A stretch of DNA of 64,000 bases. It comes from Octopus sinensis. Its lineage: Eukaryota. Where the stretch lies: contig NC_043001.1 of assembly GCF_006345805.1 (NCBI RefSeq), positions 72,974,001 through 73,038,000 on the forward strand, in the 5' to 3' direction. The position numbers were made by a program, and so were the translations under genes. Under the pieces are notes generated by a model. That model ran no database searches and was not told where the DNA came from. It saw nothing but the letters and a program-made list of their open reading frames with translations. How positions within the stretch are numbered: position 1 is the first letter of the stretch; each line of letters starts with the position of its first letter. This document shows, piece by piece, positions 811 through 20,892 of the stretch.

Positions 811-1146
811 TTGGGCTTTGAGTAGTTGTATCAGAATCTCTGTACTCTAATGTCCTATTTAGCTGGAGTTTAGTCTCATATCCTCTTAACTACACAAGTG
901 TTTTACCCAAGAACACAGCACAAAGCACTTCATTTCATGCTCCTTAAGTCTACTCAGCTGAAAATTAGTAGCAGCAACTGCTGGAGGTTAATCCTGTAAA
1001 GGACTGGTGTCTTGTTAAAGGGTGGGTAATATTGTTCTTTCCATCACTTAAGACACCATGTAAAATGGGACAAGCTCTGACCCTGTGAAGTTGTACATTC
1101 ATGGCAGGCCTAAGACCAGTCTGGATAGAGATTGTCAGTCACTACA

Positions 1147-2560
1147 CATTTTGTTGGTCACCAGCATGAATACAATATTTCAACTAAAGAATAAGTATAA
1201 AATTACATGGATGCACCCTGGTTCTAAGAAATGGCATCTTATAGATTACATGCTCACCAAGAAACGAGACACTAGGGACTTTGCTGTTGTAAGAGTGATG
1301 CATGGTGCAAAGTGCTGGACTGACCACAGGCTGTTGCGTGCCAAGGTGAATTTTGTTGTCAAGCCTAAGGTTAGAGCAAATAATAAGTTACCTAAACGGA
1401 TTAATGTCGATTATCTTAAGATTCCGTCTGTACACAATGAGTTTGTGAGTGAGATAAATAATTTGTCCTGTGATGGCAGTTGGAAGTCATTCAAAGAAAG
1501 AGTATACAAGGTTTGTAGTAACATTCTTGGCTTTGCTGTAAAAAAATACCAGGATTGGTTTGACAATAACAATGAAAAAGTTAGTCTTATCTTAGAGGAG
1601 AAGCAAAAGGCATTTAACATGTTGCAAAATGTTGACATGTCAGCGAACAGGACATTGGCTACCTAATTCAAGGCAGTAAAAGCAACAGTGAGGATGATGC
1701 ATGAAAATTTGGTGGAGTGATAGATGCAATGAAATCCAAGAAGCTTCAAATGCTAACAATTCCAAACTTTTTTACTCTCTCTTGAAAAAAGTTTATGGAC
1801 CAGTTTCATCAAAGGTTGCACCACTTCGGAACAAGGATGGCACAGAATTATTAACAAATCCTAAGGATATTGTTGGGAGATGGAAAGAACATTTTGATGA
1901 GTTGCTCAATAGACCCACTGAAGTTGACCTCTCTTTCCTTGATAATATACCTGAAAGACCAATAAAACATGTTATAGCAGAAATTCCAAACCTGACTGAA
2001 ATAAAAGCAGCGATCAGGAAATTGAACAATGGAAAGGCCCCTGGTATGAATGAACTAGGTGCAGAGATATATAAATATGGTGGCGATCATTTCTGTACAT
2101 GTTGAAGGGTGTGATTCTGAGGGTTTGGCAAAGTGAAGAGGTTCCTCCGGATTGGCATGATGCAACTATGGAGATACTTTATAAATCTAAAGCTGGAAAG
2201 GTTGTCTGTGATAATTATCATGGCATCTGTCTGTTAGCTGTTGCTGGAAAGGCCCTTTGTTGGGTAATGCTGGACAGATTGCTTCTGCACATTGCTGATG
2301 ATGTTCTACCAGAATCTCAATGTGGGTTTAGATGGAGGTCTGAAACGACACATTAAGAGAGTGCATATAGTGGAAACTGTTTCTCCTGCCAGCAAGCAAA
2401 GTTGTGCAGTATGTAATAAAATGTGTAAAAGTTTGGCTGGGCTTAAAAGTCATATAAGGGCATCACATGGCATCAATAATGAATCATTTCAGTAAGTCTT
2501 TTTGGCAATGGCTTTCCTCATGTAACGAGGGTGCAGCTATGATGTATGTATGCATGTATC
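1147..2560 (+). mobile_element. RTE-clade LINE remnant: APE C-terminus, RT N-terminus, internal deletion, C-terminal C2H2 zinc finger, (TATG)n tail
   Basis: ORFs 1085-1666 (TWMHPGSKKWHLIDY...CWTDHRL), 1701-2105 (RWKEHFDELLN, KAPG) and 2099-2356 (LPESQCGFR), then CAVCNKMCKSLAGLKSHIRASH; interrupted by stops and frameshifts. Confidence 0.9.
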
Positions 2561-2988: not shown

Positions 2989-3919
2989 TTGATATTATCG
3001 AGAGATTGAAATATTATAAACTTGACATATTCATCTAGAGAATATCTTTTATTGTTACAATTACATTGTGCCAGTCATTGAAGCCACTAAAACCGCTCAT
3101 TCATTGTTATATCCACTTCTATTAATATTATTATTTTATAATAATAATATTTTATTAGGTAGCCACAGGGAAGTATGGTGTCAATAACTGGGTCATAGAT
3201 TTATGATAGAAGTCTTTGATATCGAATATATTATCATCATTGCTATTATTACCCAATAAAGAAATTATTATTATCAAATAAGAGTGATGGTTTAGCAGAG
3301 TTGTTAGTGTTGGGGGAAAAAATGTTCTGTTGCATTTGTTTCAGCTCTTCACATTGTGAGATCAAAACCTGCCAAGGTTAATTTTGCCTTTCATCACTCC
3401 TGGGTTGGCAAAATAAACTATCAGTCAATTTACTTATCACTTGTTTCCAGTTAGAAATTTTTATAATCAAAAAATACTAAACTAAAGTAAATATACCAGT
3501 ATCAGGTGTACATGTTTGTGTATGTATGTATATATATATATATTTCTATGTAGCTGTGTGTATACATGTCTGTTGTAATGATAATAATAGTAAAGTGCTA
3601 ATTGTATACAGAGCTCTGGTGCACTACTGTCAAGAAAAAGGTTAAAAGAAGGGTCAGAAAACAGCAGTAAGTTAAGTAAAGAAAGACAGCTATGAAAGCT
3701 AAAAGTACATGCACAGTACCACAGAATAAAACAGAAACAGGAAAGAGAAAAGTGAAAGTGTCATAAAGAGGAAAGGTGCATAAGCCTTGGTGTTGGGGGA
3801 TTTGGGATGCATGGAATTTTTGGAGGTTGCAGTGTCTTGTTACACTTAACAACTGACATTGGTAGTTTATTCCATGCTTCAAAAATTCTGACCATGAAAA
3901 AATGTTTCCAAAAGACATG

Positions 3920-4386
3920 GGTACTGTTTGGGAAATGTATGGAAAGGGTAGACCCAAAGAGATGTGGGACAAAATGGTGAGAAAAGATCTTCAGATGTTG
4001 GGCCTTCAGAGGGGATGACAAGGGACTGAGGCTTCTGGAGATTTGCTGTGCTTAAGAAGGCATGTCAAGCTAAGTAAACTCATGGCTGTCCTTGCATATA
4101 GGCATGTCCCCTACATCCCTCCACAACTGAGTGATCTTAATCTTGTGAGCTCATGGGTGCTGATACCAGGTAAAAGGCATCCATTCTGGTTCCACATAAA
4201 AGTGTCTAAGCCAGTGCTATGTAAAAGCACTCAATATACTCTGTAAAGTGGTTGGCATTAGGAAGGGTATCCAGTCATAGAAACCATGCCAAAACAGATG
4301 TGGAACCCAAGCAGCTCTTCAGCTGGCTTGCTCCCATCAAACTGTCCAACCCATGCCAGCATAGAAAACAGATGTTAAATGATGAT

Positions 4387-4390
<4 letters not shown>
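3920..4390 (+). mobile_element. 3' fragment of the abundant RTE-type LINE with (GAT)n tail
   Basis: Translates as GKGRPKEMWDKMVRKDLQMLGL; 3' end CCATGCCAGCAT...GTTAAATGATGAT matches 12980-13029. Confidence 0.75.
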
Positions 4391-4430
<40 letters not shown>

Positions 4431-4579
4431 GGTTTAAGTAATTGAGATTCAAGTGAGTTCTAATGAATTCACATGAATATGGTCCTTAACTAGGATGCAC
4501 CGGAAATCTATATGGTGTTAACCATACGACAAGTGGGGTGATTACAAATAGGAAAAAAGCAACAAGAATGGGTTAAATA

Positions 4580-4663
4580 TCGGTACAATTGTTTCGTACG
4601 AGGACATCTTTAATAAGCTACAAAAAATACAGTAAATATAGATGGCTCGTACTCGTCAGCCGA
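4580..4663 (-). ncRNA. type-I hammerhead ribozyme, canonical intact core
   Basis: Minus strand: UCGG-CUGACGA-GUACGAG...CUCGUAC-GAA-ACAAUUGU-A-CCGA. Helix I 4 bp, helix II 7 bp, palindromic helix III, GUA triplet. Confidence 0.88.
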
Positions 4664-5009
4664 AAAAATATCAGAGATTCCCAAACATCAAAAGGGGTAG
4701 ATGCAAATGAGGGTGTGAGTTTAACTGCATTGAAGAAAGTTCGATTCCTGGAGATCTGATGAAAGGTCTTAAACTTACAGAATATGTGCATGTCCATATA
4801 TAGTTCATAGTGAATTTCGCACGATTGTATCCAAAATTTCTTCACATAACTTGATTAACAATTCACTATGAACTATATATGGACATGCACATATTCTGTA
4901 AGTTCAAGACCTTTCATCGGATCTCCAGGAATCGAACTTTCTTCAATGCAGTTAAACTCACACCCTCATTTGTATCTACCCCTTTTGATGTTTGGGAATC
5001 TCTATTTTT

Positions 5010-5093
5010 TCGGCTGACGAGTACGAGCCATCTATATTTACTGCATTTTTTGTAGCTTATTAAAGATGTCCTCGTACAAAACAATTGTACCGA
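5010..5093 (+). ncRNA. hammerhead ribozyme, inverted copy with G12A
   Basis: TCGG CTGACGA GTACGAG...CTCGTAC AAA ACAATTGT A CCGA; G12 is replaced by A at 5078, a CpG-type change. Confidence 0.75.
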
Positions 5094-5895
5094 TATTTTA
5101 ACCCATTCTTGTAGCTTTTTTCCTATATATATATATATATATAAAAATAAAAGCATGACTATGGGTGGTACAGGTTATTGCAAAGATGATGGATATTCTT
5201 ATAGGATTCTAGTGAGTTAGTTGCTAGATGTGAAAACTTTAATGTGTCAATGCCCAGAGGAGCAAAACATTCAAGATATAGTAACTGAGAGAGAGAGTAT
5301 TTTCTGGCTGCATATCTCTGGACAGCTTCTGAAAGATTGATAGTATGGACAAGATGGGGAGGTGGGGTCCAGACTAGAGATACAAACTGTATGATGGGTA
5401 TACTACAAAATGTGTATATGTATGTATGTACTTAGTGCAGTAGATGATGAAGAAATATACAGCATATCATTATGTATTAAGTCTCAGTGTGAAATCAGGT
5501 TCCATGAAAACTGTCAGCAGCTGCTGAAGATGAATGTCAAACTGATTGATTTCATTGTTAGACAGCTAACCATTCCAAACTGCTAAAATGTTTGCCATGA
5601 GGAACAGTTTCACAGCAACACTAAATACATATGGATATGATATGTGTATGCATGCATATGTGTGTTTGTGTATATTTTATCCACACTGTATTGGTTCTTT
5701 TGTAATTAATGCCAAGGGCCAACCCTGTACTGTTATGTACGTGAAGTTGTGTCAGACACAAGATTTGTTTATATTTCATTAAGCAACCTTCAGATACAAT
5801 TATTAACAGTCTAAGGGAAGGTGAGTGAATTGTAACCAGTCCAATTTGATATTGCCCAAAATACACCAACAGGGACTTGATTTGCAGCAAAACTT

Positions 5896-19950: not shown

Positions 19951-20892
19951 AAATTAAAAAAAATTTGTGAAATGTTAATGTTAGAACATATAATAACGGT
20001 GCCATACCATCCCAGATCTAATGGACAGGCAGAAAACTCTTTGTCGATACCTTCAAAAGAACCCTTGAAAAATCAAATAAGGAAGTCATGGACGAGGTAA
20101 CTCTACAACAATTTTTAAGAATGTACGTGTGACACCAAATCCATATACACCAGCAGGTAGCTCACCAGTGGAGCTGATGTTTGCAAGGAAAGTAAAATCA
20201 GTCCTTAATAAATTGCTACCTTGCAAGAAAAGAAAAAGTACCAGGGAAGACATAGCAAGATTCTTTAAAGTTGGTGAAAAGGTGTATATGTGGGCATACA
20301 AGAATGAAAAGCAGAGTTGGGAAGATGGTGTAATTACCAAATGCATAGGTAAAATGATATATTGGGTAAAAAGTAGAAAAGGCATAGAAAAGAGACACAA
20401 GAACCAACTGGAAAAGAGGTTCGTGAAAAGTGAACCAAAGAAGTTGGAGGAACTGATGGAATGGTTGTATTATATGTTCCAAGTACCAATGCCACTGCAG
20501 GTGATTGAACCCAGGCGTACAAGTAAGAGGAAAAGAAAACATACAGAGTTCCTGAAAATAAATGTCAAGCGCAAAAAAATATTAAATTGTACAAAAAAGG
20601 GAGATGGGGTGAATAAAAAAAAAATTATTACTAAATAAAATCACACTTCCTAAGAAAAACTTAAAAGGGGAGATGTAGGGAATTAGTAATAATGGTACAC
20701 CCCTCCTGTGTGATGAATGGAATAGCTTAGTCACTGTGAGTAAAGAGAGTACTAGTAGGTGGTCAGAGATAGTCGTGTTTTTCCTGGTTATACTAAGTAC
20801 ACTGTATACTGAAGTGGGCATTATAAACAATCCAATATTTTTAAGGATATAGCAAGGTAAATATATCATTTTCAGATATAATTTAATCTACA
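19951..20892 (+). mobile_element. Gypsy-type LTR retrotransposon 3' fragment: integrase end, PPT, 3' LTR
   Basis: EHIITVPYHPRSNGQAE...VDTFKRTL and TPNPYTPAGSSPVELMFAR; PPT AAAAGGGGAGA at 20663-20673; LTR 20674-20892 bounded by TGTAG...CTACA. Confidence 0.85.

Follow-up and report, generated by a model that had tools for sequence, protein, structure and literature searches.

A palindromic, dimer-type hammerhead in the pLTR of a Hydra-motif Penelope-like element from Octopus sinensis, carried by a 5'-truncated inverted double insertion

The hammerhead motif examined here is, we are highly confident, the pLTR hammerhead of a Penelope-like element (PLE) with Hydra-clade protein motifs, and the segment that carries it (4430-5126) is a 5'-truncated double insertion, likely produced by two reverse transcriptase (RT) starts on uncleaved RNA. 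All positions refer to the window, the 64,000-nucleotide stretch of Octopus sinensis contig NC_043001.1 that was analysed. What is new is the family of Hydra-type PLE to which the insertion belongs; the pLTR hammerhead and the inverted form of insertion are already known.

The motif lies on the minus strand (Table 1), and its core, helices and GUA triplet read as the initial annotation had described them; the predicted cleavage site, immediately after A17, also agrees in placement. It has the features of a type I hammerhead, namely a CUGANGA core, GAAA, UH, three helices and an open helix I, and a type I descriptor matched once in the window and in none of 60 first-order Markov resamplings. 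The description of the ribozyme as fully canonical holds for its catalytic nucleotides but not for its architecture. The monomer has a helix III of 2 bp, a helix I of 4 bp and a helix II of 7 + 5 bp that spans 57 nt; the canonical 6-bp helix I, 4-bp helix II and monomer-stable helix III were not found, nor was the canonical loop-loop tertiary contact in the 57-nt helix II region. A comparison with Rfam, which the annotation had suggested as a check, gave no match for the motif region at the gathering threshold, and the 31 matches at E<=10 were hairpin-driven miRNA matches, none of them to a hammerhead family. The 57-nt helix II insert is the likely cause of this miss. At position 4629 the left arm carries a private C-to-T change (1 of 75 copies), which weakens the inner hairpin of loop II, so the left arm also departs from the family-typical sequence.

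Table 1. Coordinates of the inverted insertion, its target and the two hammerhead copies in the window.
Feature	Position	Strand	Remark
(TA)n microsatellite, left half of insertion target	4390-4429		read from the sequence
118-nt tail between short and long 3' termini	4430-4547	-	left arm only
Downstream helix B, 5' strand	4481-4491	-	predicted, with compensatory change; partner past the long end, outside the window
Left arm, 5'-truncated pLTR fragment	4548-4816	-	element sense is minus; runs on through the tail as far as the long 3' end (4430)
Downstream helix A, 5' strand	4560-4571	-	predicted partner in full-length RNA is the stretch with the ORF start codon
Type I hammerhead motif	4580-4663	-	intact core, palindromic dimer-type helix III; predicted cut 4584/4583
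Helix I	UCGG 4663-4660 / CCGA 4583-4580	-	4 bp
Core CUGACGA	4659-4653	-	
Helix II	4652-4646 / 4602-4596	-	7 bp, G10.1-C11.1 present
Helix II extension	4644-4640 / 4609-4605	-	5-bp stem plus inner hairpin
GAA	4595-4593	-	
Palindromic octamer, helix III	4592-4585	-	
GUA triplet	A17 at 4584	-	predicted cut 4584/4583
Inversion junction	4813-4816		about 4 nt common to both arms; family matches end at query 387 and start at 384 on the other strand
"Spacer" (43 nt)	4817-4859	+	ordinary element sequence of the right arm
Right arm, inverted pLTR fragment	4860-5126	+	short 3' terminus at 5123-5126, where the final 3 nt could equally belong to the TA run
Mirror hammerhead	5010-5093	+	G12 to A at 5078, a CpG-type transition
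(TA)n microsatellite, right half of target	5124-5143		read from the sequence; target-site duplication indistinguishable

The inverted repeat noted around the motif is present, and its two arms differ by 6 substitutions and 2 indels over 270 columns. This divergence, at about 2.3% of sites, bears out the earlier suggestion that the insertion is young; the CpG observed/expected ratio is 0.82 in the element versus 0.18 in the window. The two arms do not end alike: the left one has the long 3' end and the right one the short end, and the right arm extends about 47 nt further upstream than the left. Among the pieces listed for four sequencing runs that were compared with the right arm, none spanned the junction. 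The whole is a 5'-truncated, head-to-head double PLE insertion in (TA)n, in a form already published for PLEs. No neighbouring host gene was recognised, and the flanks consist of other repeats. One of these, an abundant dispersed repeat of a different kind at 3930-4370, ends just left of the (TA)n target; it gave 8713 first-look candidates, the best matches being 76-80% identical. Elsewhere in the window, broken frames at 1064-2105 (+) resemble LINE endonuclease and linker pieces, and a 185-codon frame at 20081-20638 (+) resembles the integrase end of an LTR-retrotransposon remnant.

The motif belongs to a large family. An exact 20-mer over the 3' half of the intact ribozyme has 867 matches in the genome, against 0 for the reversed control, and the stretch that holds the motif yielded 1982 first-look candidates in the 2.7-Gb genome, the best of the 40 that were scored being 93-97% identical. 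Walking upstream from the longer copies leads to reverse-transcriptase sequence. In a full-length copy (locus L032), a hammerhead-bearing pLTR (3826-4307 of that locus) is followed by an ORF from 4355, a long 3' UTR and a second pLTR that ends in (TA)n. The ORF runs for 1124 codons from stop to stop; in this copy the catalytic motif is damaged and the C-terminus shifted, and other copies have YRDD and a full C-terminus. A single ORF encoding RT together with a GIY-YIG-like nuclease at the C-terminus stands between direct pLTRs at three loci (L032, L035 and L041), in a unit of about 4.7 kb with a long 3' UTR and Asn-rich inserts. Within the 3' UTR, upstream of the hammerhead, there is an internal direct duplication of about 210 nt (about 86% identical; L017 1161-1580, L032 8250-8600), and L032 has an extra 43-nt duplication. 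A sister subfamily that is older (L137-L144; about 79% identity) has helix I pairs of its own, and its helix III octamer contains G.U. The apparent start of many RT matches at one position (query position 112, L021-type copies) reflects the point of 5' truncation in the query; upstream sequence is present in other copies.

The natural ORFs contain RWR, DKT, YRDD, a CxCX5C linker and CxxC..E..N..CxH, with YRDDA in 17 of the 21 loci scanned, and the GIY-YIG core has only one Cys inside it. The C-terminal domain matched Pfam GIY-YIG weakly (E 3.6e-4; 21.2 bits, just under the cut-off of 22.6). Pfam gave nothing for the full ORF, RVT_1 was matched at E 0.061 on a fragment, and a PDB sequence search with the ORF returned zero matches. 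Of 22 homologous proteins, 21 are 35-42% identical to the ORF, the best being labelled Argonauta hians, and alignment with nine homologues sets off two Asn-rich inserts in the octopus ORF. The 22nd (P0018, labelled Octopus sinensis) is a 67%-identical partial piece of the ORF inside an annotated ankyrin-repeat protein, possibly a gene-model fusion.

Hydra-clade elements, as characterised in the portion of Craig et al. 2021 (PMC8557442) on which we draw, are marked by RW[K/R], DKT, a CxCX5C linker, CxxC and CxH around E and N, the lack of CCHH, (TA)n targets and hammerheads. The octopus ORF has the RWR variant of RWK together with DKT, CxCX5C, and CxxC and CxH around E and N, and in a set of loci collected without regard to their ends (described below) 72 of 74 classed ends adjoin (TA)n. 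We therefore assign the element, by motifs read from its sequence, to the Penelope-like retroelements with Hydra-clade protein motifs. Placement in the Naiad or Nematis clade, first suspected from motifs, was ruled out by the domain order and the Hydra hallmarks. As in the C-terminal EN+ PLEs of the Hydra clade, the protein motifs are accompanied by (TA)n targeting and by a hammerhead that lies near the 3' end and has a short, palindromic helix III, and copies are 5'-truncated and inverted with a tail at one end only (PMC8557442, in the same portion). That source gives Hydra elements as generally <3 kb, a tendency that is descriptive rather than diagnostic and that the present unit of about 4.7 kb exceeds; the unit also differs from the Hydra entries in its two Asn-rich inserts and its tail of about 118 nt. 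Compared by eye, helix II is about twice as long as in the longest Hydra entry there, and the hammerhead and N-terminal protein differ from those of Hydra-1_Obim (2507 bp), for which the entry as consulted displays no pLTR. A search of largely open-access literature found no paper on this PLE family or its end-pairing rule.

The short, non-coding, inverted structure in the window could also suggest a non-autonomous element, either a tandem retrozyme or a MITE-like foldback, in place of a truncated PLE, the more so as animal retrozymes bear similar type I hammerheads according to the available part of bioRxiv 10.64898/2026.07.22.740005. We give this reading almost no credence. The junction points differ in every copy, the sequence is continuous into the RT-nuclease ORF at L032, the ends are asymmetric and adjoin (TA)n, and hammerhead-bearing short tandem monomers without an ORF were looked for in the family and none were seen. 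L032 and the variable junctions largely refute it.

Comparison of copies, covariation included, shows that the hammerhead has been under selection in the source lineage of the PLE. Of 116 distinct copies, 101 have an intact core. When 13 old copies are set against 44 young ones, fixed differences fall in none of the 23 columns of the core and helices I and III, versus 29 of 131 columns elsewhere (p 0.008). The helix III octamer occurs as two perfect palindromes a double change apart, in 64 and 40 of the 116 copies, with 12 others; in the most diverged subfamily it is mostly imperfect and contains G.U. Across subfamilies two of the five helix I pairs are altered on both sides, and over 14 pLTR-ORF junctions 95.7% of cells pair, versus 34-39% in slid controls. 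Doubly changed pairs number 6, which is no excess over shuffles (185 of 500 reach 6) in a sample that comprises about three subfamilies and few independent events.

Folding predictions bear on the form in which the hammerhead would act. For two copies, the unconstrained cofold optimum is a double-hammerhead dimer at -42.8 kcal/mol, versus 2 x -18.1; for one copy the optimum is -18.1 and the active monomer -15.8 kcal/mol, and the active fold makes up about 1% of the predicted ensemble. On these models the hammerhead is a dimer-type PLE form rather than a monomer-active canonical one. It also has the known features of the minimal, dimeric PLE hammerheads of Cervera and De la Pena 2014 (PMC4209133, as partly available): helix II of 7-8 bp, helix I of 4-5 bp, G10.1-C11.1, a palindromic helix III or 15-16 region, location in a pLTR and predicted activity as a dimer. 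The same part of that paper reports PLE hammerhead pairs 100-700 bp apart on opposite strands, with activity that is low and dimer-dependent. The window motif differs from those hammerheads in its much longer, structured loop II, its 8-nt palindrome and the absence of the extra nucleotide between A9 and G10.1, a trait of the minimal PLE form; several published Hydra hammerheads, among those displayed in PMC8557442, likewise do without that nucleotide. The hammerhead is no stand-alone ribozyme, a point that the initial annotation missed: it sits in the pLTR of a multi-copy Penelope-like element and has dimer-type architecture. RNA read ends at 4583/4584, proposed as evidence of cleavage, would lack locus specificity.

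On this evidence it is very improbable that the window copy works as a monomer-active ribozyme on a host or read-through transcript, which it would cleave, and that the mirror arm serves as its built-in inactive twin or regulator. The left-arm core is intact with its CpGs kept, and helix II has a predicted probability of 0.95-1.0 in the left arm alone; yet most copies of the family keep an intact core and this insertion is young, and in the same prediction helix I reaches only 0.01 and intramolecular helix III 0.002. A transcript read through both arms is predicted to bury the motif, all 84 of its 84 bases pairing with the other arm, and the flanking repeats offer no recognised host gene. Because they lie on opposite strands, the two window copies cannot dimerise in one RNA.

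The mirror copy does carry the substitution that had been reported at the catalytic G12, where CG has become CA. G12 is the G of a CpG. Core CpG sites are mutated in 5 of 138 cases (0.036), other CpG sites in 28 of 893 (0.031), and the 20-mer pattern with G12A has 21 exact matches in the genome. G12A is thus ordinary CpG decay, since the core CpGs mutate at the rate of other CpGs and the change recurs, and this too speaks against a special role for the mirror arm. The proposal that the mirror serves as a natural inactive control survives in part: G12A should inactivate that hammerhead, but it is a recurrent transition with nothing special about it.

How the inverted pair arose is best approached through the 3' ends of the family. 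Two discrete ends adjoin (TA)n: the short one lies about 35 nt, and the long one about 153 nt, downstream of the cut site. In full-length copies the tail that separates them runs on into the 5' UTR, about 55 nt before the ATG. The end-unbiased set consists of 40 loci chosen by ribozyme pattern (from the first 100 matches listed, 20 pairs of neighbours and 20 singles), and its 76 ends comprise 37 short, 37 long, 1 truncated and 1 running into the ORF. Among those first 100 matches, neighbours <6 kb apart are diverging in 17 cases, converging in 0 and on the same strand in 6. Diverging pairs combine one long with one short end in 29 of 30 cases, or 25 of 26 once four local duplicates are collapsed (for 25 of 25 classed, two-sided binomial p 6e-8). 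A set chosen for having a long end shows the combination in all 15 of its 15 pairs, and a set chosen by the ORF in 8 of 9. The exceptions are L036, a complex locus with two short ends, and L087, with a short and a truncated end. Two further regularities were considered and dropped: the short-end arm does not always reach further upstream, both directions being seen, and 5' truncation at the ribozyme cut is unsupported, three long arms starting 2-7 nt upstream of the cut site and most far upstream.

The RNA around these ends appears to be structured. From the ribozyme to the start codon, the full-length RNA folds strongly (z -7.1). In the predicted fold, the sequence preceding the short site is paired with the start codon in a 12-bp helix (A), and the long site is enclosed by an 11-bp helix (B). 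Helix B and an inner hairpin show one compensatory change each, that in helix B being from G-C to U-A between subfamilies.

The origin of PLE inverted structures is called open in the passage of PMC8557442 that deals with them. One proposal, made for Adineta vaga Penelope (Arkhipova et al. 2013, PMC3846280, in the part available), is self-priming, in which the inverted arm comes from one cDNA folding back and not from two RNA primings. Those rotifer elements resemble the present family in having inverted pLTRs head to head, one of which may bear a tail, and Asn-rich ORF inserts; their tail is 31 bp, and end pairing is not counted in the part of the paper that offers the explanation. Self-priming would fit with the short palindromes or microhomologies at several junctions, and also with the 97-100% identity of the arms of a pair, which belong to one subfamily. 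In only 12 of 19 pairs, however, are the two arms at least as similar to each other as to the best unrelated arm; arm identity therefore indicates a shared subfamily and is no proof of a single template. In the window the left arm alone has the 118-nt tail and the right arm alone a 43-47 nt upstream stretch, and with private sequence on each side, neither arm can have been copied from the other by fold-back. The arms show no overlap whatever at L097, L099 and L108, and across pairs the short arm reaches further upstream about as often as the long arm. We regard self-priming as unlikely, although a variant in which the template was antisense or longer and a nuclease then trimmed the product could have given such arms.

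The inverted pair is likely the product of two separate copying starts in one insertion event, and the one-long-one-short rule favours twin priming, with two start sites that exclude each other. The template RNA would have been uncleaved at the cut site, because both window arms run through it. A biochemical precedent is PAc (Poseidon from Anolis; Frangieh et al. 2024, PMC11167929, as far as that source was available): in vitro the protein cuts AT-rich DNA on both strands, and two internal RT start sites downstream of the hammerhead define the tail on a template of uncleaved RNA. The octopus family resembles PAc in its AT-rich target and, on our reading, in the extension of both strands, the two start sites and the uncleaved RNA. 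In PAc the start sites are in the ORF, 30-40 nt apart, no strand preference was seen, and the two sites were not linked to the two strands of the target; in the octopus family they are in the 5' UTR, about 118 nt apart and almost mutually exclusive within one inverted insertion.

The course of events that we propose would begin with the element's GIY-YIG-like nuclease cutting (TA)n on both strands. The two DNA ends would then prime at RNA sites that lie downstream of the hammerhead cut site by about 35 nt and about 153 nt, one end at each; both cDNAs would copy back through the ribozyme, halt early (at about 314 and 387 nt in the window) and be joined at the 4-nt microhomology. In the active element, the hammerhead is predicted to work as a dimer through its palindromic helix III, the partners being two pLTRs of a tandem transcript or two RNAs. 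The window hammerhead would be a passenger in a dead insertion, likely buried in a duplex of about 270 bp if read through, and the copy would decay neutrally, G12A being one CpG change. More tentatively, and at somewhat less than even confidence, we suggest that each inverted insertion is a single twin-priming event on one folded RNA, whose covarying domain presents sites 118 nt apart so that each cut (TA)n end takes one. Two RNAs held asymmetrically would yield the same end pattern.

There is nothing unusual about the motif as a ribozyme: publications already cover hammerheads in PLEs, pairs on opposite strands, tails, targeting of (TA)n and a Hydra family from octopus. The residual novelty lies in the tail of about 118 nt, in the covarying RNA domain over both 3' termini and the start codon, and in the near-strict long/short rule. 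The natural helix I and helix III covariants of the family can be used for testing dimeric hammerhead cleavage. The larger value is in the insertion statistics, where the long/short rule, arms that are not copies of each other and a conserved RNA fold lead to a concrete, testable model. If each inverted insertion is indeed one twin-priming event on one folded RNA, the "optional tail" of Penelope elements would be an asymmetry that a dimeric enzyme imposes every time, and this family, with its widely spaced start sites, would be the easiest test system.
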